From IMG/VR virus record IMGVR_UViG_2671180890_000001: DNA of 62,572 bases. The stretch is one strand, 5' to 3'. The first letter of the stretch is position 1, and each line of letters begins with the position of its first letter. The translations under genes were made by a program, and so were the position numbers. Positions 6,186-59,259 of this stretch are shown here, piece after piece. The notes under the pieces are model-generated. The model saw nothing but the letters and a program-made list of their open reading frames with translations. It made no database searches and had not been told where the DNA came from. This stretch comes from a virus (Duplodnaviria; Heunggongvirae; Uroviricota; Caudoviricetes).

Positions 6186-6189
6186 TTCG

Positions 6190-8753: not shown

Positions 8754-8754
8754 G

Positions 8755-9224: not shown

Positions 9225-9251
9225 TAAAACGGGGCGCTCGGCCCCTTAATA

Positions 9252-10292: not shown

Positions 10293-10301
10293 TTTTCTTC
10301 C

Positions 10302-32600: not shown

Positions 32601-32685
32601 CGCCGGAAAGGACCCGCAAAGATGAGAATAATTATTACTTGCATTAATATCCGGCTTCTTCCACCATCGCACCGGACGGGCGACT

Positions 32686-32830
32686 ATGAGGGACAAAACC
32701 GCGCACCATAAACGCGGTAAAAACCCGGTGTGCATCGTTTTTGATTATTCCCGCACACTCGCGCAGAAGGAGTTCCCCGTCGGGCTACGGTCATGGTTAA
32801 TGCGGGAATACAGCGACGATACAGCGCATG
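32686..32830. repeat. Direct repeat copy 1 (about 145 bp, ~90 percent identical to 34472..34620), flanking the AT-rich moron
   Basis: Shared core GCGGTAAAAACCCGGTGTGCATCGTTTTTGATTATT...GAGTTCCCCGTCGGGCTACGGTCATGGTTAATGCGG. Confidence 0.7.
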
Positions 32831-34418: not shown

Positions 34419-34471
34419 CGCTCCTGAATACATGCCCTGTTTCTTCCACCCTCGCACAGGACTGGCGAGCA

Positions 34472-34620
34472 TGAGGGACAAACCCGCGAATCATTAGCGC
34501 GGTAAAAACCCGGTGTGCATCGTTTTTGATTATTTCCGCACACTCGCGCAGAGGAGTTCCCCGTCGGGCTACGGTCATGGTTAATGCGGAAATACGGCGA
34601 CGATGCAGCGCGGTATTTAA
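34472..34620. repeat. Direct repeat copy 2 (pairs with 32686..32830)
   Basis: See copy 1. Confidence 0.7.
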
Positions 34621-38135: not shown

Positions 38136-38282
38136 ATAGTTAGTGGGTTATTACCCCTCAATGACACGAACTGTAACTCTGCCAAACGAACACATCCAGT
38201 GTTATTTTTCGCTTTTTAGTGAAATTTTTAATTTGCGTTGTTTTCTTGTTTTAGTGTATTTTATGGATATGGAGGCTATAAT

Positions 38283-38594
38283 ATGTTTAACGTGATAACC
38301 CACCCTGCAGCACTGGATGAACTGCTTGAACTACCAGATGATTTGCGAGGTCGCATGACCAGATTAATTGAGCGACTGGAGAAAGAAGGCAACAAACTGA
38401 AGATGCCCCATAGCCGTGTAATAGGTGGAGGGCTTTTTGAACTACGAGTAGGGGATAAAAACATCGCAAGAACGCTGTACGCCTACGCGACTGGTAACGA
38501 AATTTATCTATTGCATGCATTTGTAAAAAAGACACAGAAAACACCGGTGAAGGCTATCGAAATCGCCAGAACTCGCCTGAAGGAGATGAACTGA
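38283..38594 (+). CDS. Type II toxin, RelE/HigB superfamily (phage Gp49-like)
   Basis: About 103 aa from MFNVITHP; toxin precedes antitoxin as in hig modules. Confidence 0.7.
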   Translation: MFNVITHPAALDELLELPDDLRGRMTRLIERLEKEGNKLKMPHSRVIGGGLFELRVGDKNIARTLYAYATGNEIYLLHAFVKKTQKTPVKAIEIARTRLKEMN

Positions 38595-38881
38595 TGAAAG
38601 CGAAAGGCATCCCGTTTAACGAAGTAAAAGAAAAACTCCTCAACACTCCAGAAGCCGTCAAAGGATATGAAGAGGCCGACAAAGAGCTGGAGATGGTCGA
38701 AATGTTATACGAAATGAGGGAAAGAGCAGGTTTAACGAAATCAGCTCTGGCTGAACGAATGGGGTTGCGACCGTCAGCCATCAGCCGCCTGGAAAGCAAT
38801 CCTTTAGGGGCAAGTATGAAAACTTTGGCTAAATATGCTCATGCCTGCGGCGCAACCATCGATATTCGCGCTGTTTATTAA
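38594..38881 (+). CDS. HTH (XRE-type) antitoxin, HigA-like
   Basis: 95 aa; HTH segment LTKSALAERMGLRPSAISRLE; ATGA overlap with the toxin stop. Confidence 0.7.
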   Translation: MKAKGIPFNEVKEKLLNTPEAVKGYEEADKELEMVEMLYEMRERAGLTKSALAERMGLRPSAISRLESNPLGASMKTLAKYAHACGATIDIRAVY

Positions 38882-38923: not shown

Positions 38924-39127
38924 TCAATGATGTGAACGCTCAACAGCGATAGTTTGCTGACAATGCTGGGCAATCTCTCGCGACATGTTGATGAGTCGTG
39001 AAACCTCACCAATATGTAGGCTGGCTTCTGGAGAAGCCAGGGTGACGCTAACCAGATCCAGAACGGCGTCAATATCTCTTAAATTTGAATCGAGTTGTTC
39101 AAGAGTTGATACGGCTGCTTCAGACAT
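38924..39127 (-). CDS. Hypothetical protein
   Basis: 67 aa ORF. Confidence 0.35.
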   Translation of the reverse strand: MSEAAVSTLEQLDSNLRDIDAVLDLVSVTLASPEASLHIGEVSRLINMSREIAQHCQQTIAVERSHH

Positions 39128-39209
39128 TAAATCTCATACCATTTAACTAAAAAAGGTTATTTATACTGTATAAAATTACAGGGTAAAACTCAAACTTTAC
39201 GGTCAATTT

Positions 39210-42631: not shown

Positions 42632-42835
42632 CTATACCCAAATTTTCTGTTGATATGTTCTGGATGGTTTTGGCGTTCTTTCTGATTCAGGTAAATGAAC
42701 ATAAACGCAATATCCATCACCTAAAAAATCAGAACGAACAACCAGAACTTTCTTACCACGCCGCCGATAAGTATCTGAAAGACGCTCTGCTTCATCATGC
42801 GTCATCGGCCCCTGCTTAAATGGCGTTATTTTCAT
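42632..42835 (-). CDS. Hypothetical small protein
   Basis: Start taken at MKITPFKQ; the ORF-track extension reads through a sopC-like palindrome. Confidence 0.4.
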   Translation of the reverse strand: MKITPFKQGPMTHDEAERLSDTYRRRGKKVLVVRSDFLGDGYCVYVHLPESERTPKPSRTYQQKIWV

Positions 42836-43136
42836 TTTCTTGTGCGACCACGGTCGCACCCTCTCTGATTTCCAAGTAACGCTTAATCCAAAGATTTTCT
42901 ATATGCTTATTACCTGGCTGATTTGATAAATACCAATCGGCAATTACAGACTGCTTATTACTATCTGGTCGTGTCCTGTAACCACAAGTTGGACACCAGA
43001 TAACATATTCATTTCTTACCCCCGAATACCTTAATTCTGGCTTCGACGGTTTCCTGAACATAACTTGTTTACAAAGACAGAATGGCACTTCCTGCCCGAT
43101 GGCGTTTGATGATTTCACTGCGCTTCTCCGCCGCAT
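42816..43136 (-). CDS. Zinc-ribbon protein, possibly Lar-family restriction alleviation
   Basis: CxC ... CPTCG cysteine pairs; start uncertain. Confidence 0.35.
   Translation of the reverse strand: MRRRSAVKSSNAIGQEVPFCLCKQVMFRKPSKPELRYSGVRNEYVIWCPTCGYRTRPDSNKQSVIADWYLSNQPGNKHIENLWIKRYLEIREGATVVAQENENNAI
42843..42858. promoter_or_regulatory. sopC-like centromere palindrome, site 4
   Basis: TGCGACCACGGTCGCA. Confidence 0.6.
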
Positions 43137-43779
43137 TTAATAATGCAGTTCGATTTAAGCTCAGACATCGCGACTTAATTAAAAGCCAGCGTTCTTTATA
43201 ATCTTGTCTCCAGCTATCAATAGATATATTCAGTAGAAAACTCAGATGCCTGTCCTGTTCTCTCTCATCAACTGCCTCAGCACACGTAAGTTCTGATTTA
43301 ACCTGTTGTGCCGCGTAATAAATCAATTTCCGCATGGCTTTTTTCGTGGAGGCCTTCATTTTTTTAAAGCCGCCCCCCGAATGAGCAACCAGAAAATCAA
43401 GCCATAACCACTGACAAACAATCACATCATTGTTGTAATCAGGCTTGCATCCGTAGCAATAATAAAGCCAGGCTGATTCCTCGTTATTCAACTGACCAAT
43501 AGCCCTGCGCCAGCTGGCGCTCTGAAAATCAATATCAGTGAGCAACATTGATGATTGTTTAAATGTTTTCCCCTGGTGGAATCTAACCGGCTCAGCAGGA
43601 ACGGACACTTCGTATGAGTTATCATCCCCCACACTGATTGACCGGACTGGTTTATTGTTAAACCGTCCTGATCTACCGAGACGCATCTGCTCAAGCTGGA
43701 CCTCCAGAATGCCACGCTGGCGATAATGAACATCAGCCAATGCCGTAGAGACGCAGCTGCGTATATACTCAAGCTCCAC
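43069..43779 (-). CDS. Putative late antitermination protein Q-like
   Basis: 236 aa; position immediately downstream of cro on the same strand; family assignment not verified. Confidence 0.4.
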   Translation of the reverse strand: MELEYIRSCVSTALADVHYRQRGILEVQLEQMRLGRSGRFNNKPVRSISVGDDNSYEVSVPAEPVRFHQGKTFKQSSMLLTDIDFQSASWRRAIGQLNNEESAWLYYCYGCKPDYNNDVIVCQWLWLDFLVAHSGGGFKKMKASTKKAMRKLIYYAAQQVKSELTCAEAVDEREQDRHLSFLLNISIDSWRQDYKERWLLIKSRCLSLNRTALLNAAEKRSEIIKRHRAGSAILSL

Positions 43780-44017
43780 GCTTACGACTCTCCTTAATCG
43801 ACTGCTTTACCCGCCGAGTTGTAAAGTCACTCTTCAGCTTATAAGCAGTACGAACTTCAATATCGCTTTGCCGCAATGAAGGAATCTCTCCAGCGGTTAA
43901 CCATTGGTAAACAGCTCCGGGTGTTACACCTACCCCTGCCGCTGCTTTTTCTACACTGCCAAAATGGCGAATAAGTTCTTCTGGTTTCATGTTGTTATTA
44001 TAAACAATAAACAACAA
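43769..44017 (-). CDS. cro: Cro-like repressor
   Basis: 82 aa with HTH (VGVTPGAVYQWL), divergent from the CI-like repressor. Confidence 0.6.
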   Translation of the reverse strand: MLFIVYNNNMKPEELIRHFGSVEKAAAGVGVTPGAVYQWLTAGEIPSLRQSDIEVRTAYKLKSDFTTRRVKQSIKESRKRGA

Positions 44018-44081
44018 TTAAAGCCAGCTATAATAAATAAATTTTATAGCCAGCTATAAGAAGATCATTTATGATTACAGT
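44018..44081. promoter_or_regulatory. Divergent promoter/operator region between cro and cB
   Basis: Repeated AGCCAGCTATAA / TTATAGCCAGCTATAA motifs. Confidence 0.5.
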
Positions 44082-44678
44082 ATGAAAACACGAGGCGAAC
44101 GACTGAAAGCACGCCGTTTAGAGATGAAGCTGACGTTGCGAGAAGTTGCTGAGGCTGTCGATATCTCTATAGCAGGCGTCCAAAACTTAGAACGTGGCGA
44201 CGTAATGCCGTCACTGGAGATAGGTATTGCCCTGGCTAAGTGCTTACGCAAGCCAGTGCATTGGGTGCTATATGGGACAGAATATGACCCTGATCGCATT
44301 CCTGTTATTGGCACAACTGAAAGTGGGCCGGATGAAGAGTGGAAGCCGGGACAGGTTCCAAATACTGAGCGATTCCTGCCATTCATCAGCCAGCGCAATA
44401 CTGTGTATGCGTTAACTATCAGCAATCTTACGCAGGGAAACTATCAGCCAGGCGATTTTCTCCTGGTCGATTCTGCGCTGGAACTGGTCCCCGGCGAGGA
44501 TGTTCTGGTTCGTGATACTGCAGGAAATATCACTATCCAGCGCCTGGCCCGTTTTGATGATGAAAATTACTATCTGGATGGAACAAACTCACAACGCGCC
44601 ATCTTCAGGAAAAGCGATCTTGAATTTGTTCACCAAATAGTCGGAACGATCAAATCATTCATGGTTGAGGGTAGATGA
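44082..44678 (+). CDS. cB: Prophage repressor, CI/CB-like (HTH plus C-terminal S24-like domain)
   Basis: 198 aa; N-terminal HTH_XRE LTLREVAEAVDISIAGVQNLERG. Confidence 0.8.
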   Translation: MKTRGERLKARRLEMKLTLREVAEAVDISIAGVQNLERGDVMPSLEIGIALAKCLRKPVHWVLYGTEYDPDRIPVIGTTESGPDEEWKPGQVPNTERFLPFISQRNTVYALTISNLTQGNYQPGDFLLVDSALELVPGEDVLVRDTAGNITIQRLARFDDENYYLDGTNSQRAIFRKSDLEFVHQIVGTIKSFMVEGR

Positions 44679-44923
44679 CTTAATACGGGGTTTATTGTTT
44701 GCTGTAAATCTGGTTTAATGCAGGGCATATGTTCTGTGGGTTGACTCAGGTTACAGCAGCAGAAAAAAGACGAAAAAAAACCCGAGTCGGCAAACTCGGG
44801 TCCTTTTCAGGAAGCAGCCACAGTAACGCGACGGATTCCGTCAATTCAAGATGCGTTTATTGTGGCTGCTCCTGCGGATTTTTTCAACCCGAAAAAACAT
44901 AATTCGCATGGAATTGCTAAAAA

Positions 44924-47900
44924 ATGACATTAAACGATTTCTATGCGGATCGCTTTGGCAGCGATCCGTTCTCGCTAATTGAAGCAGCACGGGATGAACT
45001 AACCGAGCTGGCACAGATGGCTGGTATCAACTGGCCTGCCTGTTCCGACAACATCCAACTCAACCCTCGCGGGGGGGTTGAGCGTTACTCTTCATACAAT
45101 AAAACATCTCCAGAAGCTCTCGAAAAGAGCCTGAAAGGACGCGTAGAAATTTACTCCAGGCTGGAACACAGCAAAGGGATTGATTACCCGTTCATTAACT
45201 TCGTCCATAAAGGCAGCGATGCTGGCTCATGGAGCGGTTTCTCCTTCCTGTTTTCTGAATATCGCCGTGAGCAACAACGGAATAATGCGACCGTGGTCGC
45301 ACAACCGGAAGAAGAACGGGAAAGAATAGAACGTCAGGCCGAAGCACGTCGTCGCCGTGAAGAACAAAAACGAATTAATGACCTGAAAAACAACCAAATG
45401 GACCATGAACGTTTGCTGGGATGGCTGGCATTCCACAGCGCGTGGGAACATGCTCCGGCTGAAGACGGCTCATGGCCATATGCGATTAAAAAAGGTATTC
45501 GTGACGTTTTTAGTTCATGTGATGTGCGTCGCGTGACCAGTCACGACAGTGCGAAATGGAGCCGGGGGCCAACCACATATATGGCTATCCCTCTGGCTCA
45601 CCTGGACAGTCGTTATGATGGTCGTATTGTGGGTTGGCAGCGAATCGACAAACAAGGTGGGAAATACCAGACCAGCGCAGTAACCAGCGGCGATTTCGTC
45701 GGTGCCTGCTTTGTTATCGGTGAGCTGAAAGGGGCGCAAAACATCGCTGTTACAGAAGGTTTTGCTACTGGTGCATCCATCTGGCTTGCCACGAAAAAAG
45801 ATAAACGCTTTGACGCTGTGGTTGTCGCTGTATCCGCTAACAACATGGTTCATGTTGTGGAACAACTGGTAAACATGTACCCGGCGGCAAAAATCACCTG
45901 CGCACTGGATAATGACCGGAAATCTGCCACAGAAGGAAAAGGGAATACCGGCCTGCGGACTGGCTATGAAATCTTATCGAAATTCAACGATGTCCGCTGC
46001 GTCTATCCAACTTTTGAAGACGATCCGCAAATGGAGTGCAGTGACTTCAACGACCTGCACAAACTACGTGGACTTCGTGAAACAGCACGTCAACTGTTTG
46101 CAACAGCAAACCGCCTGAAAACCGGTACTGATTTGCTATCTCTGACGCTCAACCGCCTGAAGACAATTAAGCGGGATAACCGTCGTACTTTTGCCAAAGA
46201 GCTGCTGAGAGCGGTGGATATTGGCATGCTAACCTGTCCGGTTCCTAACAGTCCGTCAGATTTATTTAACATGTTCTGCATCGTTCTGCGTGAAATGGGA
46301 CTGGAAAATATCTATCGTGCTACGGTAAAAGACCACATTGCCCGTCGCCTGAATAAAAAGTGCCGTATTGCCCAGGCTCCGCGCTCTTTCAGCGAACGCA
46401 TAACTGATCCCAATAAACGACCTCAACATATCACCTATAAGCGTTTTGAAACTTCGGTAATGACCGATGATGTCCTGAAGTACGTGCAATCACTACAGGG
46501 GATAGTCATCGTCCGTGCTGGTATGGGTTCCGGCAAATCTACTGGATTGTTACGACCGTTAATGCATAGCTCAGAACGTGGTATCTCTGTTGCTCACCGT
46601 GTCTCCCTTATTGGTGGCCTGTGGGAAATGATGACAGAAGGAAAAGGTGTAAAAGCCGATATCCTGCACTATCAGGATCCTGGCTATCAGGAAATGGCTC
46701 CATACGCCAGTAAACTGACCATCTGCATAAACTCGATTGTTAAAAACTGCTGGCAACCGTTGATGCGCCAGCACGACTATTTTGGCTTTGACGAGGCCAC
46801 ACAAGGGCTACGTGCCGTTCTTTCCGGTCGGGCTATGGAAAACCCGGTGGCTGTATTCAATACGCTAATTGACGCGCTGGCCAGAACGGAACAACACCCA
46901 ATCATGGTGGATGCTGATGCGAACGATCTGCTGGTTGACCTGGCTGAACTGGCTATGAAACGCCGTGAAGAACTAGGTTTACCGGCATGGCTGCAGATCC
47001 ACGTAATTGAATTACCTGTTGATGTTCGCAACCGCGAAACAGGTGAGCCAATCCGGGTTTTTTATACAGAAAAAGATCGCATCATGACCGAGGTGGTGAA
47101 AGCTGTATCGGATGGCGAAAAAATCATGTTGGCCACCGACAGCTCCACCTTTGCAGAAGATGTGACAGCCACCCTGAGAATGCATTTTCCTGGTAAGAAA
47201 TTTCTGTGTGTAAACCAGAAAAACAAACCAGAGCCAGAAGTTGAAGCATTTACCAATCAACCGAAAAAGATGGTCAAAAAATACGACGGCCTGATTTATA
47301 GCCCGTCTATTTCATCCGGCGTGTCGATTGAGCAAAAACATTTTGACCGTCATTTCGGCATGTTCTGTGGTGAAGTTGTACCCAGCGACGCAGTGCAAAT
47401 GCTACGCCGCGACCGTACAGCAAAAGAATTTATTATCGGCTTTGATAAAGCTCGTGCAAAACGTGAAACTGACCCGCAAAAAATAGAACGAGCATTCGCC
47501 CAGGCATTGCTTGCTACTGCAGGTATGAACGGTGAACTGACGGATGTCGTTTTCGATGGCGACCGTATATCAATGGGGGTGGCCAATACCGACTTTACCA
47601 GGATGAAAATTAAAGCAGCCGCAATTGAAGCGTCTGCACGTAACGACTACGCCAGCAACATGATCTGCATCATGCACAGCGACGGTTATAAGATATCGCC
47701 GCTGGCCACCGATTATGCTGCAAATGATATCGGTAAAGATCTGCGTAAAGAAGCGCGGGATATTGTGTGGGAACAGACACTGGATCTGCATCTCAATACA
47801 GAAACTCCACAAGAATCAGAGCGTGAAGAACTGCTAAAAAAACGCGCGCTGACGCTTGAAGAACAGGCAAAACTTGTCCGCTGGGATATTGAGAACGAAC

Positions 47901-48919
47901 TGAAACTACCGGTTGAAGAAGGCACGCTGAAATTCTATTTCGATGGTGCTCGAGACAAAGTTCGCCGCTATGAAACAATGCTTTTAGATGAGGTAACAGC
48001 TCGTCGTTACGACCGGGAAGAAGCAGCCATCAATTTTACCTACGCATACCGTCAGGCGGGACAGTGGCAATATTTTGTAGTGACCGCAATGACTCGCGAG
48101 CAGGCTGATGATGTCTTTAAAACTAAATTCCCTGGAATAATCGACTACAAGGTAAAAGCTACTCCTACTGTTGAAGTCGGGGCGCGCGGTTTCTATGCGC
48201 TTAAATCAGCAACTCTCCGGCAGTACTTTATCGACTGCGGTATCAACCCTGAGACTATGACCGGCGAGGCGACTCAGGAGCGTCTCAAATTTGCTCGAGA
48301 TAACCTCATGACAGCCGAACGCCGTGACCTGTTGAATAACGTTCTGCACATTGGTGGTTTTATGACGCCAAAAGGGAAGCCTAAAGTGCCGGAAGCGTTG
48401 TTTAAAAACATTTGCGACTCTCTTGGCCTTAAAACAGGTAAACGTCGCGGCAGAGACGGCGATAAGCGTCCAACCTTGCGTTTTGTTGAGCCTGAATCAG
48501 CGGCATTTATGCTGGATATTCTTGCTCAGCGTCAGAAAGATGGCCTAACCCTGAAAACGCGTAAAGCCGAGAAGACTGCCATCGAAATGGATCGCGATTT
48601 GGATCTCAATATATATATGGATGATAAAACGCGATCCACAAACGAGCAGGTTCAAAACGCCCCTCATTCAGTAATTTCTGAGGCTTTGGCTGTGTTGCCA
48701 GTGGTTGTACCTGAGTCCTGGGCGATGAGTGCGCTTTCCGGTGAGGAGCTGGCCACTATGTCATCATGGTCATCAGCTAGCATAGCTATGACGTTTGCAT
48801 CTCTGTACCTCACAGAGTTCATGGATCACTTATCCAGCAATGAACTGCGGCGGTTACGTGAATACATTACCGGGAATAGCCCATGCAGCTACGAAGAGCA
48901 GGGCGCTTTCTATGGGTAA
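44924..48919 (+). CDS. repA: RepA multifunctional replication protein (primase plus helicase), N15 RepA-like
   Basis: 1331 aa; TOPRIM-like CALDNDRK region; Walker A GMGSGKST. Confidence 0.9.
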   Translation: MTLNDFYADRFGSDPFSLIEAARDELTELAQMAGINWPACSDNIQLNPRGGVERYSSYNKTSPEALEKSLKGRVEIYSRLEHSKGIDYPFINFVHKGSDAGSWSGFSFLFSEYRREQQRNNATVVAQPEEERERIERQAEARRRREEQKRINDLKNNQMDHERLLGWLAFHSAWEHAPAEDGSWPYAIKKGIRDVFSSCDVRRVTSHDSAKWSRGPTTYMAIPLAHLDSRYDGRIVGWQRIDKQGGKYQTSAVTSGDFVGACFVIGELKGAQNIAVTEGFATGASIWLATKKDKRFDAVVVAVSANNMVHVVEQLVNMYPAAKITCALDNDRKSATEGKGNTGLRTGYEILSKFNDVRCVYPTFEDDPQMECSDFNDLHKLRGLRETARQLFATANRLKTGTDLLSLTLNRLKTIKRDNRRTFAKELLRAVDIGMLTCPVPNSPSDLFNMFCIVLREMGLENIYRATVKDHIARRLNKKCRIAQAPRSFSERITDPNKRPQHITYKRFETSVMTDDVLKYVQSLQGIVIVRAGMGSGKSTGLLRPLMHSSERGISVAHRVSLIGGLWEMMTEGKGVKADILHYQDPGYQEMAPYASKLTICINSIVKNCWQPLMRQHDYFGFDEATQGLRAVLSGRAMENPVAVFNTLIDALARTEQHPIMVDADANDLLVDLAELAMKRREELGLPAWLQIHVIELPVDVRNRETGEPIRVFYTEKDRIMTEVVKAVSDGEKIMLATDSSTFAEDVTATLRMHFPGKKFLCVNQKNKPEPEVEAFTNQPKKMVKKYDGLIYSPSISSGVSIEQKHFDRHFGMFCGEVVPSDAVQMLRRDRTAKEFIIGFDKARAKRETDPQKIERAFAQALLATAGMNGELTDVVFDGDRISMGVANTDFTRMKIKAAAIEASARNDYASNMICIMHSDGYKISPLATDYAANDIGKDLRKEARDIVWEQTLDLHLNTETPQESEREELLKKRALTLEEQAKLVRWDIENELKLPVEEGTLKFYFDGARDKVRRYETMLLDEVTARRYDREEAAINFTYAYRQAGQWQYFVVTAMTREQADDVFKTKFPGIIDYKVKATPTVEVGARGFYALKSATLRQYFIDCGINPETMTGEATQERLKFARDNLMTAERRDLLNNVLHIGGFMTPKGKPKVPEALFKNICDSLGLKTGKRRGRDGDKRPTLRFVEPESAAFMLDILAQRQKDGLTLKTRKAEKTAIEMDRDLDLNIYMDDKTRSTNEQVQNAPHSVISEALAVLPVVVPESWAMSALSGEELATMSSWSSASIAMTFASLYLTEFMDHLSSNELRRLREYITGNSPCSYEEQGAFYG
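45286..45301. promoter_or_regulatory. sopC-like centromere palindrome, site 5, inside repA codons 121-127
   Basis: TGCGACCGTGGTCGCA encoding NATVVAQ. Confidence 0.6.
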
Positions 48920-49103
48920 TCAGTGGATATTATCTTTGTGTCTCTTGCTTTGTGTGTTCCAGCAATGGTTTTGGTTCATAGATCGAAAGTCTCACAAGGA
49001 AAACATGAAGGCCAGGAAGGCGATGTTTCGTGGTGAACAACTCGCGCAGACTTATCGTATGTGGAAACGTTTCTATCGTGATTTTTCGGTGAACGGGGAG
49101 TAA
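48912..49103 (+). CDS. Hypothetical small membrane protein
   Basis: Internal Met MGNQWILSLCLLLC; overlaps repA stop. Confidence 0.4.
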   Translation: MGNQWILSLCLLLCVFQQWFWFIDRKSHKENMKARKAMFRGEQLAQTYRMWKRFYRDFSVNGE

Positions 49104-49107
49104 AAAT

Positions 49108-49434
49108 ATGTCTACTACTGCATTTTTGGACAAACTTGATTACCGTCAGCTGCAGTTTTGCCGGGATGAATGCGATCGACGCATTAAGGCTATCCAGGAG
49201 GAAGAAAAAAAGGTTGCCTGGGCTGTAACAGATCGTGGCCTTATCTTTGGCTGGTTCCGTACGGAGGATTATCTGAAAGCAGTGGAATTATTGGCGCGTG
49301 AGGCTGCTGAGCGTTGGGAACGAGCCGACAAGGAAAACCCGGAGACGAAGTATGAACTGAATCTCTACATCGAGGGCAACCGTCTACCATTGTCAGAGTA
49401 TAACGCTTTGTTTGCTGATGGTGAGTGGGGTTAA
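49108..49434 (+). CDS. Hypothetical protein
   Basis: 108 aa ORF. Confidence 0.5.
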   Translation: MSTTAFLDKLDYRQLQFCRDECDRRIKAIQEEEKKVAWAVTDRGLIFGWFRTEDYLKAVELLAREAAERWERADKENPETKYELNLYIEGNRLPLSEYNALFADGEWG

Positions 49435-49832
49435 AAATGGCTGTTCAATCATACAAATACGAATCCCCTTTGGATAAGGGATACATTCGTATCAAGTTAA
49501 GTCGTTCTCAACATAAGGCTATTTTTAAGGTAAGGAAAATTCGCATATTGGATGCGTATGCGTATTACTACAACGGTGAAAATGTTGTTGTTGAACACTT
49601 TCTTGCACGATGGTTTGTAGCTCTGATTTTTGTCCCTCTCCTGTTAATTGGTACTTTTGTGGATGGTTTTCCTAGTACATGGCGGGAGATAAAGAAAGGC
49701 CTATTCCCGCGTAAGTACGGCAGATTTTCGCAAGATAGCTGGCGAGTTATACCTGGTAAACATTCTGTGGATGAGCAGCCGATTGTTGATTACTGGTTGA
49801 AGCGTATGGCTGATGCTAAAAAAGTTGATTGA
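49425..49832 (+). CDS. Hypothetical membrane protein
   Basis: 135 aa ORF with a central hydrophobic segment. Confidence 0.5.
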   Translation: MGLKMAVQSYKYESPLDKGYIRIKLSRSQHKAIFKVRKIRILDAYAYYYNGENVVVEHFLARWFVALIFVPLLLIGTFVDGFPSTWREIKKGLFPRKYGRFSQDSWRVIPGKHSVDEQPIVDYWLKRMADAKKVD

Positions 49833-49921
49833 ATAGTGATGACTGTTCAAGTTAAACCGTTCTCGGCATATTTTATTTAATGGAATAACATATTATTAAT
49901 CAAATAGGTTAAGTTAATATT

Positions 49922-50734
49922 ATGCGTAACAAAAAAACAACAGCTTTATTACTCTCTATCTTGTTATTATCTGGATGCACTTATCAATATGATAATAAGG
50001 CATCAACGGACGTTGAGTATAAATTCGAAAAAGAAAAAAGAGTACCTATCAACTCTGTTGGTGATTTTAGCAGCAAAATACTCACAGGTAAGGAATTTAA
50101 TAGAATTATTGCATCAAAGATAGATGATGGTTCATGGCGTGGATATGTCGTTCACTCATTAACATACGCGCCATACAACAACGTTTTAACATCTCAAGGT
50201 TTGTCTATCCCTAGAAGTATCACATACTCAGGAACATATCTTAACCGTGATTTTGTTGAGAATAGCGGTAGTGATAGCGTGATAACATCTCGAGATATGT
50301 CTGGATGGTATGGTTTTCATGTCGATTCCTCTGAAATAACAAAGCATGGAAGCTATGTTGGTGCTAATGCTTTTGGAATATCTGCTGATGTAGAAGTGTT
50401 AAATACTTTAGGTGCCGAAATTATCTTTGGTAGTACACAAATAAATGAAGGGAACCCTGAAACAATATGGGCAGATATTGATATAAAAGGACAAATACCA
50501 AAAGATGTTAATGTAAAAGACCTTAGAATTGAATATTTAGCAAAGATAAATGGGTTAAGCAGTAATCATATTGATATAACATCACCTACTATTTTTAACC
50601 CGTCAGATATGAGCCATAAAACTCAGGTTTTTATGGGTGAGTTATTAGCCGCGCGCCTAATAAATATTAAAACGGGAGAAATTTATCCAGTACAGCTAGA
50701 GTGGGTGTTCCGTTCGCGTGAGGCTTTCTTATAA
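49922..50734 (+). CDS. Moron lipoprotein, function unknown
   Basis: 270 aa; signal peptide with lipobox LLSGC; strongly AT-rich gene. Confidence 0.6.
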   Translation: MRNKKTTALLLSILLLSGCTYQYDNKASTDVEYKFEKEKRVPINSVGDFSSKILTGKEFNRIIASKIDDGSWRGYVVHSLTYAPYNNVLTSQGLSIPRSITYSGTYLNRDFVENSGSDSVITSRDMSGWYGFHVDSSEITKHGSYVGANAFGISADVEVLNTLGAEIIFGSTQINEGNPETIWADIDIKGQIPKDVNVKDLRIEYLAKINGLSSNHIDITSPTIFNPSDMSHKTQVFMGELLAARLINIKTGEIYPVQLEWVFRSREAFL

Positions 50735-50864
50735 CGGAACAATAACATTGTTCATGTTCTGATCGTTTGTTCAAGCAAACTATAAAAACACCTGTCCCCG
50801 TGACTGGTCACGGGGTAAAATGTCTTTGCAAATTATTGACGTGTGCGTCGTTTTGGAGGTAAAG

Positions 50865-50950
50865 TCACCTCGCTGCGGTAAATCCCGCAGTCGGGACTTC
50901 GCAATCCTGGCAAAACGAAGCGCACAACACGCGCCAGCGTGTTTTTTTGT
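50865..50950 (+). ncRNA. Candidate c4-like cis-antisense regulatory RNA upstream of icd-ant
   Basis: TTGACG and TAAAGT promoter-like hexamers, CTGCGG/CCGCAG stem-loop, ACACGC/GCGTGT terminator plus T7; two 8 nt blocks complementary to a site about 100 nt downstream. Confidence 0.4.
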
Positions 50951-51111
50951 GTGTATAGACCTGCGCATATCCGAATTATGGTGGCTCAGGTGGGGCTGAC
51001 TTCGGTCGGGCCGGTTTCTTCGTTTACCGGTATTGCGAACCCCGCCTGGGCTACCACCAATAAAGAGATTCGCAACTCTGGTGGTAGCACGACCAATAAA
51101 ACGGAGTGCAT

Positions 51112-51279
51112 ACCATGTTCAAATTCAAATTTGCGGCAGTCGTTCGCACAGACAAAAAGTCCCACATTCATCATCTTTCCACTATCGCGTCATCTGAACG
51201 GGAAGCTCGTCGCCAGTTCGCCAGCCGGTTTGTCCTGGTATTGTCTGCCCGTATTCCGGTGCGCGAGGTGGCTGCATGA
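51112..51279 (+). CDS. icd: Icd-like cell division inhibitor (55 aa)
   Basis: MFKFKFAAVVRTDKK ... SSEREARRQFAS pattern; not in the ORF track because under 60 aa; coordinates approximate. Confidence 0.45.
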   Translation, partial: TMFKFKFAAVVRTDKKSHIHHLSTIASSEREARRQFASRFVLVLSARIPVREVAA

Positions 51280-51509
51280 ATCAGGTAAAAATGAACACTG
51301 TTGGCCTGCTGGAATCGTTGGATGAACGTCTGGCTCAGGTCTATGCGCTCGTATCATCAGCCCATCGGACAGTCTCCAGTTGTGAGGCGTCGATTTACCT
51401 CTCAGAGGCTGGAAAACTTCTGCAGATTGCGTGTGAGTTAACGCATGAAGCACAGGGATATTCTGCGTCTCTCTCGTCGCACTTGCTGCGCGATAAGGAG
51501 GCTGAATGA
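51276..51509 (+). CDS. Hypothetical protein in the antirepressor operon
   Basis: 77 aa ORF, translationally coupled to the flanking genes. Confidence 0.5.
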   Translation: MNQVKMNTVGLLESLDERLAQVYALVSSAHRTVSSCEASIYLSEAGKLLQIACELTHEAQGYSASLSSHLLRDKEAE

Positions 51510-52288
51510 GCGCGTTAGCAGTCTTTTCCTTTCAGGAAGAGCATCAGGTTCGTGTAGTGATGATTAACGGTGAGCCGTGGTTTGTGGCTAAGGATGTATG
51601 TGATGCTTTAAGACTCGTTAATTCCCGGAAGGCGCTAATGTCTCTGGATGAGGATGAAAAGGGTGTAACTTTAAGTTACACCCCTGGCGGAGAGCAAAAG
51701 CTAAATATTATTTCAGAGTCAGGTCTATACACCCTGATCCTCCGCTGCCGTGACGCGGTGAAGCAAGGCACAACAGCTTGGCGGTTTCGCAAATGGGTAA
51801 CGAACGAAGTCTTGCCCTCTATTCGCAAAAATGGAGAGTACGTTTACATCGAGCCTGAGCCAATGCGAGCAGCGGAGCCGTTGAACTGGAGGCAGAAAGA
51901 GTATCTGCGAGGGCTGATTAACGATATAGCACAAAGTTTTCAGTACCGAAATGCCTGGATTAGCGGTGTATGGTTAGCTTTGCGTCGGGCGTGTCGTAAT
52001 CCATCCCCGAACCCCATAACGGTTGATGATTTGCCAGCAATTACGGCAGAACTGCGCCGGATTTTGACGGCTGCTGAGTCGGCATTGGGGAACATGCGCA
52101 CGTATGAACGAGAGTTGTTGCGTGATGTTGTTCGTGGGGGTAGGCGGAGTATGTCGTGTGGTGATTTACCCATCACCGATATTAACTCTGATCTGGAAAA
52201 GGCGTTACCCGCGCATTTTGAACTGGCAGTTCAAAAACTTGAGCAGTTATCCGCGCAGCTAAAGCCAGCAGAAATCACCAATAAATAG
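51506..52288 (+). CDS. Antirepressor with Bro-N domain
   Basis: 260 aa; N-terminal FSFQEEHQVRVVMINGEPWFVAKDVCDAL. Confidence 0.75.
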   Translation: MSALAVFSFQEEHQVRVVMINGEPWFVAKDVCDALRLVNSRKALMSLDEDEKGVTLSYTPGGEQKLNIISESGLYTLILRCRDAVKQGTTAWRFRKWVTNEVLPSIRKNGEYVYIEPEPMRAAEPLNWRQKEYLRGLINDIAQSFQYRNAWISGVWLALRRACRNPSPNPITVDDLPAITAELRRILTAAESALGNMRTYERELLRDVVRGGRRSMSCGDLPITDINSDLEKALPAHFELAVQKLEQLSAQLKPAEITNK

Positions 52289-52459
52289 GGTTGACCAGCC
52301 CGAATTTATGCCCTTCTTAGAGAAGGGAAGCCTCGCAGTCGGGGCGGTGATGTCTGTGGTTGCAGCCGCGTTTCCTCCGTTACTTCTGCCCTTTGCAGGG
52401 GGCAGGCGAGGTAGGTCACACAACAAGGCACCGTTAATTCGGTGCCTTTACTGTATGCT

Positions 52460-54355
52460 TTAACCGAAATATGTCAGCCATGCTAACTGCATTGCTGACA
52501 TGGGGCTGTTTGCACTGCCGGACCACGCATAATTCTGGCCATTATAATGAAACTCAACAACGTATGAGCCATCACCAATATTTCTCACCGGCTTAAATAC
52601 CGGCTTAGATACAGGCGAAGAAGGTGCAGGCGGTTGCTGTTCTTCTACGCTATCTTCCTCTTCCTCTTCCTCTATCTCAATTTCGTCGTCATCCAGATCG
52701 TCATCCTCTGATAATTCATCCGCCAGTTCAGGTATTGCTTCCAGTTCTTCTTCGTCAGGCATAACGATTTCTGGAGTATCTATTTTCAGTTGCCATTGTC
52801 CGTTTTCGCCAACAAATTGCCCCAGAGCATCAGCAGCAAATTCCAGGTATCGACTAATCATTGTTGGGCTAAATTTGAACGCTCTTAGAGTGCTGTTCGT
52901 GATTTTTATAGAGGGGTCCTGCTCTACCAGCTGCTTAACTGTGTTATGCAGACGAACCCCGGCATCTCCTCTGGCGAATCCAGGCATTTCGTCATCAAGC
53001 TGCTGCAATGCTTCCAGCCTGGTATTTTCGTTTCCAGTATTTGGCCTCCATGTCTTTGAGAAGTTGGCCAGCTTGAATTGCTTATAGTGTAATTGAGTGT
53101 TTTCATCGTCATGGCCTAAAATTTCCATAAAGAAAACATCTTCATCTACGTTTTTCCAACGAGGATCTACGCGGAAAAACATTTCATACGCAATACGGGC
53201 ATAAATAGCACGACTATCTTTATAAACACGGCGGTCATCTTTGAAAAATGATTTAACCCACGGGTTAAAAGCCTTTGCTAATATGGCATTAATACGTCCG
53301 TTTTCAGAGCGTGTGTCGTTATCTCCATAACCTTTAACGACATCATCAAAATCAGATGCTGCTGGGCATGAGCGAAGTACATTTATTAAATAAACAAATG
53401 TTTTTGCTTCGCATAATGTATATATTTTTCTGGTTATATCATCAGAAGTTCTTTTTTTAGCTTGGCCTAAAAAATCAACGGTATACTTACCAGAAACAGT
53501 AAATGTACCTTGATACATAATCTCAATCATTCGTCTTCCTGACAATGCAGCAAGTGCAAATGCCAAAGGAGCCATACCTGAACGAGTGTTTAGATTATTT
53601 AATGTAGCAGGGCTATTTATAATATCGTAAATAGCTTGCATATATTTAGGGTAATCAATGACCACCACGTTACGTTTCTTATTGTGCAGAACGTCCGCCC
53701 ATCGTTGCTGGATAGATGCACGTTCGGCAGGGCTTAGTTGAAGATGATAGAGAATCTCATGGTTAACTTTTAGCTGATTCAACTCCTCAAGTAAGGCAGA
53801 TCCTTGCTGTAGTAATTTATATAAATAATCGCGCTTATCTTTCCAGTTATCGCTAGTTAAATCAGAAATGGCGAATTGCCACTCTTTATATTTATTTGAT
53901 AATTTCAATAACTTATTATGACTTTTGTTATCGCCAATTCTGATATTAGATAAATCTTCTGATAGAGGGAGAATTAATTTTAATTTTGCCTGTAAAGCTG
54001 ACATTCTCTGGCGAATATCGGCAGCAGGTAGAGAAAGCCATGACAATAGCTCCTCATTATATAAAGGATACTTTTCAGATAGGCGATGTATATTTTTTTC
54101 AAAGCTATGATGAAGTTTATCATCAAACCGTTTTCTGGCCCTGCTCATATAGGCATTGAATGTGTTGGCTGTAATTCTTTTTTCTAATCCTTTCCCCCTA
54201 AACTTTCGCTTGTCATTAAATAATGCATTTTTAAATTTTAATGCAACAGCCTTTATTTTTTTTGTTTTCTCCCCTTGAGGACGGTCAGAGTTATCTATTG
54301 ACTCAACATCGCTAACAAGTGAGTTTATTAATTCACCGATTTTTACTTTGCTCAT
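52460..54355 (-). CDS. telN: Protelomerase TelN
   Basis: 631 aa; adjacent to the telomere palindrome; N15 TelN-like length and position. Confidence 0.9.
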   Translation of the reverse strand: MSKVKIGELINSLVSDVESIDNSDRPQGEKTKKIKAVALKFKNALFNDKRKFRGKGLEKRITANTFNAYMSRARKRFDDKLHHSFEKNIHRLSEKYPLYNEELLSWLSLPAADIRQRMSALQAKLKLILPLSEDLSNIRIGDNKSHNKLLKLSNKYKEWQFAISDLTSDNWKDKRDYLYKLLQQGSALLEELNQLKVNHEILYHLQLSPAERASIQQRWADVLHNKKRNVVVIDYPKYMQAIYDIINSPATLNNLNTRSGMAPLAFALAALSGRRMIEIMYQGTFTVSGKYTVDFLGQAKKRTSDDITRKIYTLCEAKTFVYLINVLRSCPAASDFDDVVKGYGDNDTRSENGRINAILAKAFNPWVKSFFKDDRRVYKDSRAIYARIAYEMFFRVDPRWKNVDEDVFFMEILGHDDENTQLHYKQFKLANFSKTWRPNTGNENTRLEALQQLDDEMPGFARGDAGVRLHNTVKQLVEQDPSIKITNSTLRAFKFSPTMISRYLEFAADALGQFVGENGQWQLKIDTPEIVMPDEEELEAIPELADELSEDDDLDDDEIEIEEEEEEDSVEEQQPPAPSSPVSKPVFKPVRNIGDGSYVVEFHYNGQNYAWSGSANSPMSAMQLAWLTYFG

Positions 54356-54525
54356 CTTTCCTCTCCTGATTATCCGCTCGGATTATCGTAACACAATTTG
54401 AGAATAAGATAACTAATAACGCGTTAACTTAGGCACAAACTAACAGAACACAACAACGGATAATAAATAAAAACACAATATCGGAACGTTAAAATTTGTT
54501 CCTTGACTTTGTTCTGAAAATCAGC

Positions 54526-54567
54526 ACATAATTCCCCATTATACGCACGTATAATGGGGAATTATGT
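54526..54567. repeat. Right hairpin telomere (telR) read-through: same 20 bp arms around a CA centre at 54546-54547
   Basis: ACATAATTCCCCATTATACG-CA-CGTATAATGGGGAATTATGT. Confidence 0.85.
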
Positions 54568-54737
54568 GCTGATTTTCAGAACAAAGTCAAGGAACAAATT
54601 TTAACGTTCCGATATTGTGTTTTTATTTATTATCCGTTGTTGTGTTCTGTTAGTTTGTGCCTAAGTTAACGCGTTATTAGTTATCTTATTCTCAAATTGT
54701 GTTACGATAATCCGAGCGGATAATCAGGAGAGGAAAG

Positions 54738-56633
54738 ATGAGCAAAGTAAAAATCGGTGAATTAATAAACTCACTTGTTAGCGATGTTGAGTCAATAGAT
54801 AACTCTGACCGTCCTCAAGGGGAGAAAACAAAAAAAATAAAGGCTGTTGCATTAAAATTTAAAAATGCATTATTTAATGACAAGCGAAAGTTTAGGGGGA
54901 AAGGATTAGAAAAAAGAATTACAGCCAACACATTCAATGCCTATATGAGCAGGGCCAGAAAACGGTTTGATGATAAACTTCATCATAGCTTTGAAAAAAA
55001 TATACATCGCCTATCTGAAAAGTATCCTTTATATAATGAGGAGCTATTGTCATGGCTTTCTCTACCTGCTGCCGATATTCGCCAGAGAATGTCAGCTTTA
55101 CAGGCAAAATTAAAATTAATTCTCCCTCTATCAGAAGATTTATCTAATATCAGAATTGGCGATAACAAAAGTCATAATAAGTTATTGAAATTATCAAATA
55201 AATATAAAGAGTGGCAATTCGCCATTTCTGATTTAACTAGCGATAACTGGAAAGATAAGCGCGATTATTTATATAAATTACTACAGCAAGGATCTGCCTT
55301 ACTTGAGGAGTTGAATCAGCTAAAAGTTAACCATGAGATTCTCTATCATCTTCAACTAAGCCCTGCCGAACGTGCATCTATCCAGCAACGATGGGCGGAC
55401 GTTCTGCACAATAAGAAACGTAACGTGGTGGTCATTGATTACCCTAAATATATGCAAGCTATTTACGATATTATAAATAGCCCTGCTACATTAAATAATC
55501 TAAACACTCGTTCAGGTATGGCTCCTTTGGCATTTGCACTTGCTGCATTGTCAGGAAGACGAATGATTGAGATTATGTATCAAGGTACATTTACTGTTTC
55601 TGGTAAGTATACCGTTGATTTTTTAGGCCAAGCTAAAAAAAGAACTTCTGATGATATAACCAGAAAAATATATACATTATGCGAAGCAAAAACATTTGTT
55701 TATTTAATAAATGTACTTCGCTCATGCCCAGCAGCATCTGATTTTGATGATGTCGTTAAAGGTTATGGAGATAACGACACACGCTCTGAAAACGGACGTA
55801 TTAATGCCATATTAGCAAAGGCTTTTAACCCGTGGGTTAAATCATTTTTCAAAGATGACCGCCGTGTTTATAAAGATAGTCGTGCTATTTATGCCCGTAT
55901 TGCGTATGAAATGTTTTTCCGCGTAGATCCTCGTTGGAAAAACGTAGATGAAGATGTTTTCTTTATGGAAATTTTAGGCCATGACGATGAAAACACTCAA
56001 TTACACTATAAGCAATTCAAGCTGGCCAACTTCTCAAAGACATGGAGGCCAAATACTGGAAACGAAAATACCAGGCTGGAAGCATTGCAGCAGCTTGATG
56101 ACGAAATGCCTGGATTCGCCAGAGGAGATGCCGGGGTTCGTCTGCATAACACAGTTAAGCAGCTGGTAGAGCAGGACCCCTCTATAAAAATCACGAACAG
56201 CACTCTAAGAGCGTTCAAATTTAGCCCAACAATGATTAGTCGATACCTGGAATTTGCTGCTGATGCTCTGGGGCAATTTGTTGGCGAAAACGGACAATGG
56301 CAACTGAAAATAGATACTCCAGAAATCGTTATGCCTGACGAAGAAGAACTGGAAGCAATACCTGAACTGGCGGATGAATTATCAGAGGATGACGATCTGG
56401 ATGACGACGAAATTGAGATAGAGGAAGAGGAAGAGGAAGATAGCGTAGAAGAACAGCAACCGCCTGCACCTTCTTCGCCTGTATCTAAGCCGGTATTTAA
56501 GCCGGTGAGAAATATTGGTGATGGCTCATACGTTGTTGAGTTTCATTATAATGGCCAGAATTATGCGTGGTCCGGCAGTGCAAACAGCCCCATGTCAGCA
56601 ATGCAGTTAGCATGGCTGACATATTTCGGTTAA
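54738..56633 (+). CDS. telN: Protelomerase TelN (fold-back copy)
   Basis: Identical 631 aa translation. Confidence 0.85.
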   Translation: MSKVKIGELINSLVSDVESIDNSDRPQGEKTKKIKAVALKFKNALFNDKRKFRGKGLEKRITANTFNAYMSRARKRFDDKLHHSFEKNIHRLSEKYPLYNEELLSWLSLPAADIRQRMSALQAKLKLILPLSEDLSNIRIGDNKSHNKLLKLSNKYKEWQFAISDLTSDNWKDKRDYLYKLLQQGSALLEELNQLKVNHEILYHLQLSPAERASIQQRWADVLHNKKRNVVVIDYPKYMQAIYDIINSPATLNNLNTRSGMAPLAFALAALSGRRMIEIMYQGTFTVSGKYTVDFLGQAKKRTSDDITRKIYTLCEAKTFVYLINVLRSCPAASDFDDVVKGYGDNDTRSENGRINAILAKAFNPWVKSFFKDDRRVYKDSRAIYARIAYEMFFRVDPRWKNVDEDVFFMEILGHDDENTQLHYKQFKLANFSKTWRPNTGNENTRLEALQQLDDEMPGFARGDAGVRLHNTVKQLVEQDPSIKITNSTLRAFKFSPTMISRYLEFAADALGQFVGENGQWQLKIDTPEIVMPDEEELEAIPELADELSEDDDLDDDEIEIEEEEEEDSVEEQQPPAPSSPVSKPVFKPVRNIGDGSYVVEFHYNGQNYAWSGSANSPMSAMQLAWLTYFG

Positions 56634-56804
56634 AGCATACAGTAAAGGCACCGAATTAACGGTGCCTTGTTGTGTGACCTACCTCGCCTGCCCCCTGCAA
56701 AGGGCAGAAGTAACGGAGGAAACGCGGCTGCAACCACAGACATCACCGCCCCGACTGCGAGGCTTCCCTTCTCTAAGAAGGGCATAAATTCGGGCTGGTC
56801 AACC

Positions 56805-59170: not shown

Positions 59171-59259
59171 AATATTAACTTAACCTATTTGATTAATAAT
59201 ATGTTATTCCATTAAATAAAATATGCCGAGAACGGTTTAACTTGAACAGTCATCACTAT

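Follow-up and report, generated by a model that had tools for sequence, protein, structure and literature searches.

Genes and operators of a primary immunity region (immB), very probably of an N15-type linear plasmid-prophage

Gene content of the region

The window (the whole stretch of DNA analysed, 62,572 nucleotides) carries the following genes in and beside the region at 43069–44678:

43069–43779, minus strand: Q, late-gene antiterminator, 236 aa, starting at a GTG like N15 Q
43769–43990, minus strand: cro, lytic repressor, 73 aa, identified by the P22_Cro HMM and orthology to N15 Cro
44082–44678, plus strand: cB, prophage repressor, 198 aa, with an N-terminal HTH_3 domain and a degenerate S24-like C-terminal domain
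44924–48919, plus strand: repA, primase/helicase replication protein, 1331 aa, an ORF annotated as primase/repA in relatives

Q and cro are read leftward and cB and repA rightward, with the OR operators between cro and cB and the OL operators between cB and repA, an order that ORFs and HMM searches found to be collinear with N15, phiKO2 and YDC107_1. The divergent repressor/Cro pair of the original prediction was recovered as ORFs 44082–44678 (plus) and 43769–44017 (minus), and the Q-like ORF placed beside it is present. The Q ORF runs 11 nt over the cro stop; Q matches Phage_antiter_Q (PF06323) over profile positions 2–219 of 220 (E 4e-84, 282 bits against a cutoff of 25) and the Q-like PHROGs family phrog_304 (E 2e-72), and is 67% identical to N15 Q.

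The leftward member of the pair is Cro by HMM (Pfam P22_Cro, PF14549, E 2.5e-22, 78.9 bits against a cutoff of 30.2) and matches a PHROGs regulator (3e-22). From Met1 it is 87% identical to N15 Cro (PDB 2HIN/6ON0, E 2e-32), whose recognition helix, PGAVYQ, it shares unchanged. The extent first given to it, 43769–44017, is the maximal ORF (82 aa), which starts at a TTG and reads through OR1, but most likely the protein begins at ATG 43990, which aligns with Met1 of crystallised N15 Cro; the Pfam domain starts from residue 11 of the long ORF. We rejected TTG 44017 as the start, as the extension consists of OR1 and promoter DNA, shows no protein-level conservation and lies ahead of Met1 in the crystallised protein. 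No clear Shine–Dalgarno sequence was found upstream of cro or cB. N15 Cro binds OR3 with a KD of 90 nM and binds neither OR1 nor OR2 (PMC6649833), and OR3 is the only Cro site shown experimentally in N15 and phiKO2 (PMC4997575, PMC6649833).

HTH-repressor homology, on which the prediction of a CI-like repressor had been staked, was found in CB (HTH_3, E 3e-11); the protein also matches a PHROGs transcriptional repressor (2e-25) and is 78% identical to N15 CB. Its N-terminus is 4 aa shorter than that annotated in N15, whose upstream start ATG is not in frame here. The promoter scan placed one element ahead of the gene:

44047–44075, plus strand: putative cB promoter, TAGCCA, 17-nt spacer, TATGAT

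In U45242, a putative N15 cB promoter is annotated with the same two hexamers. Here OR3 contains the −35, and 6 nt separate the end of the −10 from the cB ATG; the cB transcript may therefore be leaderless.

The C-terminal domain of CB matches Peptidase_S24 below threshold (21.3 bits against a cutoff of 23.3). The column of the catalytic Lys holds Gln153, both in the MAFFT alignment and in three of three phmmer alignments, and 41 of 43 CB sequences have Gln in place of this Lys. Depending on the aligner, the catalytic Ser column falls on Asn115, Thr117 or a gap, and the position of the Ala-Gly (or Cys-Gly) cleavage site reads Ser-Gly (TESGPD). CB is thus predicted from its residues not to cleave itself, and a self-cleaving repressor was ruled out because both the Ser-Lys dyad and the Ala-Gly site are missing. 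The CB proteins of N15 and phiKO2 likewise lack the cleavage site and the Ser/Lys residues (PMC4997575).

Operators between cro and cB

Three 16-bp sites carrying a T-A-N10-T-A motif lie between cro and cB, in register with the annotated OR1–3 of N15:

43995–44010: OR1, TTATTATAAACAATAA, positional homologue of annotated N15 OR1 with 1 difference
44018–44033: OR2, TTAAAGCCAGCTATAA, differing from OR3 only at base pair 4 of the left half-site
44044–44059: OR3, TTATAGCCAGCTATAA, a 7+2+7 near-palindrome identical to OR3 of N15 and phiKO2

OR2 and OR3 share the 16-bp near-palindromic consensus TTA(T/A)AGC-CA-GCTATAA. OR1 overlaps a minus-strand −10, TATAAT (43997–44002), 6 nt before the cro ATG.

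The predicted AT-rich spacer of 64 bp holds as 44018–44081, but grows to 91 bp if Cro starts at ATG 43990; GC is 22% over 43990–44079. The half-palindromes said to repeat within it are there twice, although each 12-mer is in fact the centre and right half of a full 16-bp near-palindrome, and a third site, OR1, had been missed inside the TTG-extended Cro ORF. Exact copies of the 12-mer, AGCCAGCTATAA, number two in the 62.5-kb window (44022 and 44048), both inside the spacer. With up to one mismatch, 0.26 matches were expected and two were reached in 2 of 100 shuffles; the repeat is not due to chance, as it is conserved in relatives. The operator motif does differ, as had been proposed, from the sopC-like palindrome GTGCGACC-NN-GGTCGCAC, which occurs in 5 copies against 0 expected, two of them (42842 and 45285) flanking immB.

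In operator alignments of six phages, OR3 was invariant and OR1, OR2, OL1 and OL2 were in register. A position weight matrix (PWM) trained only on the operators of N15, phiKO2 and KpLi5 was scanned over the ~62,500 positions of the window, and ranked OR3 first (21.8), OR2 second (20.1), OR1 fourth (15.4) and OL2 fifth (14.8).

Operators and antisense RNA at the repA promoter

Downstream of cB, the following features precede repA:

44692–44707: OL2, TTATTGTTTGCTGTAA, at the position of N15 OL2, overlapping the −35 of PL, the repA promoter
44715–44730: OL1, TTAATGCAGGGCATAT, overlapping the −10 of PL; positional homologue of N15 OL1
44773–44808: bidirectional terminator in the repA leader (terminator scan), annotated as such in N15 and phiKO2
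44859–44887, minus strand: Pinc-like promoter of an antisense RNA against the repA leader, TTGAAA, 17-nt spacer, CACAAT (promoter scan)

Both OL sites retain the TA-N10-TA motif. OL2 has 4 of its 16 positions changed relative to N15 OL2, and OL1 has a PWM score within noise, outside the top 25 matches. The core of the terminator is invariant in 6 phages, and the element probably terminates transcription of the leader as well as of the antisense (inc) RNA. The Pinc-like promoter sits at the position of annotated N15 Pinc, and the antisense RNA, 44852–44765, folds with z = −3.7. By analogy with N15, repA transcription would be the second target of CB.

In the genome-wide operator search that had been proposed, with repA and telN in view, the repA promoter has OL2 and OL1, and a match at the telN stop (52448) was within shuffle noise. 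Sites scoring at least 12 numbered 9 against 2.9 expected (shuffle maximum 8), several of them mirror duplicates. A further candidate at 32632–32647, near a lambda-like cos, was a strong outlier (17.2); it is absent from the homologous N15 sequence and was put down to chance. Three-mismatch sites at 50770 (upstream of the immA RNA genes), at its mirror 58307 and at 52448 were within shuffle noise, as were those at the telomere centres 54539 and 6157, and none of these sites is claimed as an operator. The telomere-centre sequence TTATACGCACGTATAA and OR3 have the outer TTATA..TATAA in common.

Antirepressor and immA

Two further loci bear on immunity:

38924–39127, minus strand: AntC-like small antirepressor, 67 aa, recognised by a LexA box, similarity to an N15 ORF and a PHROG match
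50974–51061, plus strand: C4-type antisense RNA of immA, matching Rfam RF01695 at 82.3 bits (gathering score 45)

A LexA-box search found CTGTATAAAATTACAG at 39166–39181, 39 nt upstream of the AntC-like start. Between its genes 47 and 48, N15 carries an unannotated ORF that has a LexA box too and shares 55.6% identity with this one. The ORF here also matches the anti-repressor family phrog_10889 weakly (E 7e-8); the identity, the box and this weak match together suggest an AntC function. The gene sits outside the immunity region, as in the LexA-controlled antirepressor type of induction, which reportedly is that of N15 AntC, 186 Tum and Gifsy.

The C4 RNA has a mirrored copy at 58032–58119, and downstream of it lie ORFs with Phage_ASH and Bro-N domains. 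The C4-like module invoked for a second layer of immunity is therefore real, but two layers leave out a third locus, the LexA-box AntC-like antirepressor.

Identity of the locus

Taken together, 43069–44678 very likely serves as immB, the primary immunity region of a linear N15-type plasmid-prophage (Ravinvirus), and works as an N15-type switch. Such an immB is the main lysis/lysogeny switch, already well studied, and this one is ordinary, with nothing new in its design. The N15 record U45242 annotates cB, cro, Q, OR1–3, OL1–2, PL, Pinc and the terminators at homologous positions. N15 immB (U45242/AF064539; Lobocka et al. 1996) resembles the window in gene order, orientation and overlaps, in three 16-bp OR sites with start-to-start spacings of 23 bp and 26 bp plus two OL sites over the repA promoter, in an identical OR3 and Cro recognition helix, in the repA-leader terminator and Pinc, and in a CB without the catalytic Lys. 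It differs in nucleotide sequence (identity ~75%; CB 78%), in the start of the CB helix, in OR2, where the window has GCT for GGT in the right half-site and C for T at the centre, and at several positions of OL2 and OL1. The immB of phiKO2, from a Klebsiella host and another genus, is alike in architecture with an identical OR3 at ~75% nucleotide identity (Hammerl et al. 2016, PMC4997575); its OR2, TTAAAGCCAGGTATAA, differs from that of the window at one position.

Over the whole of immB, nucleotide identity is 99.6% to YDC107_1, 97.6% to PhiR46_1 and ~75% to N15 and phiKO2, with gene order kept. YDC107_1 (CP025712), PhiR46_1 (PV340565) and ~28 Escherichia/Shigella plasmid records share 97–99.9% identity and equal OR1–3 and OL sites with the window, show point differences only and represent one immB allele; their product names are automatic or similarity-based, and the stretches examined carry no operator features. 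In complete genomes of E. coli, the immB region was found at 20 places, all 20 on plasmids and none chromosomal. An exact search with the OR2–OR3 42-mer found none in the contigs of a one-genome-per-species set, whose representative genomes lack the plasmid. The window itself is an assembly artefact from a hairpin telomere; it contains TelN domains of a protelomerase, and its palindrome centres are telRL-like telomere centres matching N15 telRL.

Among 73 IMG/VR loci with the OR3 16-mer, a CB homologue was present in 49 and a Cro homologue in 48. These counts bear on the notion that the HTH/S24 and Cro-like proteins are an unrelated XRE-family pair, or a defence or toxin–antitoxin module, beside repeats that are incidental AT-rich sequence. 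HTH proteins of the XRE family abound, and public annotations say only 'XRE family' or 'Cro/CI family', but the orthology to N15 immB, which genetics and biochemistry have defined, the operators in register across 49 loci and the company of Q, repA, telN and telomeres in a telomere-phage genome leave this reading with a negligible probability. The labels cB, cro, Q, OR1–3 and OL1–2 of an N15-type phage-plasmid can be given with confidence; beyond annotation (a corrected Cro start and a CB explicitly not self-cleaving), its importance is small.

Proposed switch

Built on the genes, operators, lost lysine, LexA box and C4 RNA seen here, and on experiments with N15 and phiKO2 for every binding and regulatory step, an N15-type switch may operate as follows. 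In the prophage state, CB would bind OR1–3, with HTH_3 for DNA binding and the S24-like domain for oligomerisation, shutting off the leftward cro–Q transcripts; in EMSA, phiKO2 CB binds all five sites, OR1–3 and OL1–2 (PMC4997575). At the OR operators it may also tune its own promoters, and at OL2 and OL1, over the repA promoter, it would hold down plasmid copy number. Once CB is gone, cro and Q would be transcribed; Cro, an all-alpha dimer, would bind OR3 and block cB transcription, and Q would antiterminate late transcription. Without self-cleavage of CB, DNA damage should act indirectly: LexA cleavage would derepress the AntC-like antirepressor (38924–39127), which would inactivate CB. immA, with its C4-type RNA, would act as a second anti-immunity locus and a further layer.

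The original prediction had called the pair lambda-like, and in layout it is: lambda too has its repressor and Cro genes diverging around three near-palindromic operators, further operators past the repressor gene, and Q. A literal lambda-type switch, with graded Cro binding at three OR sites, repression of its own promoter and RecA-driven self-cleavage of CB, could draw in addition on the weak S24 match and on an OR2 nearly equal to OR3 in this lineage. We consider it very improbable. Cro of N15 and phiKO2 binds OR3 alone (PMC6649833, PMC4997575), and CB is without the self-cleavage machinery of LexA and CI, scoring under the Pfam cutoff for S24, with Gln153 for the general-base Lys, Ser-Gly for Ala-Gly and Asn, Thr or a gap at the catalytic Ser; an antirepressor with a LexA box is present. 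Lambda operators are 17 bp against 16 bp here, Cro here has the all-alpha P22-Cro fold, none of the lambda genes N, cII and cIII was found here, S24 self-cleavage of the lambda/LexA kind needs the Ser-Lys dyad and Ala-Gly site that CB lacks, and the OL operators, unlike those of lambda, control a plasmid replication gene.

Two immB alleles

In this E. coli-associated immB allele, the sole feature specific to the lineage is an OR2 that is a one-base variant of OR3, co-segregating with the change from LP to IA in the CB helix and with diverged OL sites. OR2 has the TTAAAGCCAGCTATAA form in all 16 sequences (the window and 15 IMG/VR loci) with a CB matching that of the window at 99% identity or more, and ends in ..AGGTATAA in all 27 with an N15/phiKO2-type CB. 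Sorted by helix, 16 of 16 ISIAGVQN sequences have OR2 ..GCCAGCTATAA, OL2 TTATTGTTTGCTGTAA and OL1 TTAATGCAG(G/A)GCATAT, and 27 of 27 ISLPGVQN sequences have OR2 ..AGGTATAA. N15-like phages with a common OR3 thus fall into two discrete immB alleles, differing in OR2, OL1, OL2 and the start of the CB recognition helix.

This strict co-segregation raises the question of a distinct immunity, in which Cro also binds OR2 (autoregulation), or the specificity of CB has shifted, or both, making the phage heteroimmune to N15. The proposed reason why Cro rejects OR2 of N15 is a pair of changes, at base pair 4 in one half-site and base pair 6 in the other (PMC6649833), and OR2 of the window keeps only the base-pair-4 change. 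Base pair 4 is nevertheless contacted directly by Gln H6 of Cro (PMC6649833), and one change may still abolish binding; OR3 is identical to that of N15 and OR1 nearly so; phiKO2 CB binds the N15 operators with low specificity (PMC4997575); and the two classes are two clades, which makes their co-segregation one evolutionary event. We regard a distinct immunity as unlikely, though worth more weight than a literal lambda-type switch. The two alleles are a natural experiment on operator discrimination by N15-type Cro and CB.

The recognition helix of CB starts IAG here and LPG in N15, and its specificity could differ somewhat.

The locus is an N15-type immB region

The region at 43069–44678 of this N15-like linear plasmid-prophage of Escherichia coli is a textbook N15-type immB region, near-identical to deposited sequences and already known. 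The three open reading frames of the original prediction, a divergent repressor/Cro pair followed by a Q-like gene, were all found, with Pfam matches to each and PHROGs categories in agreement for CB, Cro and Q.

Genes of immB
43069–43779, minus strand: Q, late-gene antiterminator, 236 aa, GTG start; Phage_antiter_Q (Pfam), E = 4e-84, full length
43769–44017, minus strand: cro, maximal open reading frame, 82 aa, TTG start; P22_Cro (Pfam), E = 2.5e-22
44082–44678, plus strand: cB, prophage repressor, 198 aa; HTH_3 (Pfam), E = 3e-11
44047–44075: promoter-like TAGCCA-17-TATGAT, its −10 ending 6 nt ahead of the cB ATG at 44082; also annotated in N15

By megablast against phage records, the region was 99.6% identical to Escherichia phage YDC107_1 and 97.6% to PhiR46_1, and matched N15, phiKO2 and several relatives from Klebsiella and Enterobacter at ~75% along its whole length. 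The N15 record U45242, titled ‘immB region’, annotates cB, cro, Q, the promoters PL and Pinc and leader terminators, with operators OR1–OR3 between cro and cB, and OL1 and OL2 between cB and repA, the primase/helicase replication gene. This collinear annotation, with the homology of CB (78% identical to N15), Cro (87%) and Q (67%), supports the predicted primary immunity region with minor corrections. Window Cro also matched structures determined for N15 Cro (2HIN, 6ON0; E = 2e-32).

One correction concerns the start of cro. The P22_Cro domain begins at residue 11 of the TTG-started frame, and ATG 43990 lines up with Met1 of the crystallised N15 Cro; extension to TTG 44017 would run through OR1 and a TATAAT box, adding 9 unconserved residues. 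The gene is thus most likely 43769–43990 (73 aa), and the cro–cB spacer, 64 bp as predicted from the TTG start, becomes 91 bp. The N15-annotated upstream cB ATG is out of frame in the window through a 1-nt deletion, which favours MKTRGERL at 44082 as the conserved CB start. The TATAAT within OR1 ends 6 nt ahead of the cro ATG, as the cB −10 box does ahead of its own, so both mRNAs may be leaderless.

Two further reading frames were seen. A 116-aa frame antisense to cB (44075–44425, minus strand), comparable to an ‘unknown’ CDS annotated with a ribosome-binding site in U45242, may be a simple by-product of cB codon usage. Downstream of Q and sharing 68 nt with its end, 42816–43136 (minus strand) encodes a Lar-like restriction-alleviation protein (phrog_6795, E = 1.5e-45; Pfam Lar_restr_allev weak), named only ‘orf QD1’ in YDC107_1.

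Operators and predicted regulation

Taking the N15 operators from its record and aligning six phages, we located five operators.

Operators of immB
43995–44010: OR1, TTATTATAAACAATAA; one difference from N15
44018–44033: OR2, TTAAAGCCAGCTATAA
44044–44059: OR3, TTATAGCCAGCTATAA; same in all six phages
44692–44707: OL2, TTATTGTTTGCTGTAA
44715–44730: OL1, TTAATGCAGGGCATAT

The T-A-N10-T-A motif known from N15 and phiKO2 (PMC4997575) is retained in all five, and the OR sites are spaced 23 and 26 bp start to start, as in N15. The spacer was strongly AT-rich, as predicted (22% GC across 43990–44079), and the repeat reported there, AGCCAGCTATAA, is real, occurring exactly twice in the 62.5-kb window and both times between cro and cB. 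It is not a half-palindrome, however: the alignment shows the 12-mer to span the middle and right half of both OR2 and OR3, OR3 itself being a 7+2+7 near-palindrome. With one mismatch or fewer allowed, OR2 and OR3 were the sole matches to the 16-mer pattern in the window. A matrix built from N15, phiKO2 and KpLi5 operators only ranked OR3 first, OR2 second, OR1 fourth and OL2 fifth over all window positions. The exact OR3 16-mer was present in 73 IMG/VR loci, with a CB homologue in 49 and a Cro homologue in 48; wherever CB was found, the flanking cro-OR1-OR2-OR3-cB sequence was the same. We also considered TTATTACTTGCATTAA (32632–32647), ~50 bp from a lambda-like cosN, as an extra CB operator; it outscored OR1 on this matrix but is not conserved in N15, and is probably a chance match.

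Experiments on N15 and phiKO2 place CB on all five operators, where it represses cro and Q, cB itself and repA and, through repA, holds down copy number (PMC4997575), while Cro binds OR3 only (KD 90 nM for N15, 44 nM for phiKO2), with no binding of N15 Cro to OR1 or OR2 up to ~1 µM (PMC6649833). As the window shares with N15 both its Cro recognition helix (PGAVYQ) and its OR3, the same behaviour is expected here: CB would bind OR1–3 and OL1–2, repressing cro/Q, cB and repA and so limiting copy number, and Cro would bind OR3 alone.

Two discrete alleles were apparent among OR3-sharing sequences. With a CB recognition helix starting ISIAGVQN (the window and 15 IMG/VR loci), OR2 was ..GCCAGCTATAA, differing from OR3 only at base pair 4, and OL2 and OL1 were window-like, in 16 of 16. 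With the N15/phiKO2-type start ISLPGVQN, OR2 was ..AGGTATAA in 27 of 27 and the OL sites were N15-like. The alleles form two clades and so represent one evolutionary event, which does not demonstrate co-adaptation of helix and operators. [quoted passage not shown]

An AntC-like gene and immA

The CB C-terminal domain is S24-like (sub-threshold in Pfam: Peptidase_S24 21.3 bits, cutoff 23.3) and predicted from its sequence to be catalytically dead. The general-base Lys column is Gln153 (MAFFT and 3 of 3 phmmer alignments), a replacement seen in 41 of 43 CB sequences examined; at the catalytic Ser position the alignments place Asn, Thr or a gap (MAFFT, phmmer), and the Ala-Gly cleavage site is Ser-Gly. 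The same absence was noted earlier in N15 and phiKO2 CB (PMC4997575). Consistent with such a repressor, the window carries a good LexA box and an antirepressor-like gene.

Further regulatory features
38924–39127: AntC-like open reading frame, 67 aa, 55.6% identical to an unannotated N15 frame; anti-repressor PHROG match
39166–39181: LexA box CTGTATAAAATTACAG, 39 nt upstream of the 67-aa frame
50872–51061: RNAs of immA, an isrK-like sRNA (52.8 bits) directly upstream of a C4 antisense RNA (50974–51061, 82.3 bits; mirror copy 58032–58119)

The N15 homologue lies between genes 47 and 48 and is likewise preceded by a LexA box, and a LexA-controlled AntC antirepressor of N15 is published, as cited in PMC4488713 and PMC3121763; the frame, labelled gp47, hypothetical protein or nothing in public records of it or its homologues, is probably AntC. 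Adjoining it, 38238–38881 encodes a Gp49-like protein (PF05973, E = 4e-29) and then a 95-aa HTH_3 protein, stop and start overlapping by 1 nt; the pair looks like a HigB/HigA-type toxin–antitoxin.

Of the two immunity layers predicted, the second, immA, is present with its C4 RNA, an isrK-like RNA, and Phage_ASH-domain and Bro-N-domain frames; the AntC-like locus brings the regulatory loci to three, all known from N15. The mirror copy of isrK missed the gathering score, even though the window's two arms share 99.96% identity.

The repA leader (44765–44887) holds a bidirectional terminator (44773–44808), its core invariant in six phages, and a minus-strand Pinc-like promoter (44859–44887). Together these would yield an ~88-nt antisense RNA (fold z = −3.7), fitting the copy-number control RNA annotated in N15. 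The sopC-like centromere palindrome GTGCGACC-NN-GGTCGCAC occurs five times (0 expected), at 34402, 34622, 37632, 42842 and 45285. Those at 42842 and 45285 lie on either side of immB, the first in the orf QD1 region and the second within repA; another two bracket a 172-bp segment (34441–34611) that is repeated at 32656–32827 with 91% identity.

Hairpin read-through in the assembly

Self-BLAST of the window revealed two giant near-perfect palindromes, 46940–62151 (centre near 54546) and 1–12331 (centre near 6166), the latter running on across the window ends, since 62152–62572 is the reverse complement of 12332–12754. Both centres match the N15 protelomerase target telRL, and telN, immA, sopAB and other genes occur twice in mirror image. 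The pattern is typical of hairpin telomeres read through in long-read assemblies. The window is not a natural molecule but a circularised read-through artefact, the real linear hairpin-ended genome being ~48.4 kb (about 6166–54545); immB lies in the unique part, outside the mirrored arms. At the telomere centre (54539–54554 and 6157–6172) the sequence is TTATACGCACGTATAA (CGCACG), compared with the symmetric CGCGCG of telRL; the odd base at the hairpin tip may reflect either a true difference or a mistake in sequencing or assembly.

The immB region was found in 17 of 5426 complete E. coli genomes, on plasmids every time, and in 213 PLSDB plasmid records (176 Klebsiella, 27 Escherichia, 10 Enterobacter/Citrobacter/Shigella). 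Two copies of it occur in several odd-length plasmid records in public databases, which probably share the hairpin read-through artefact.
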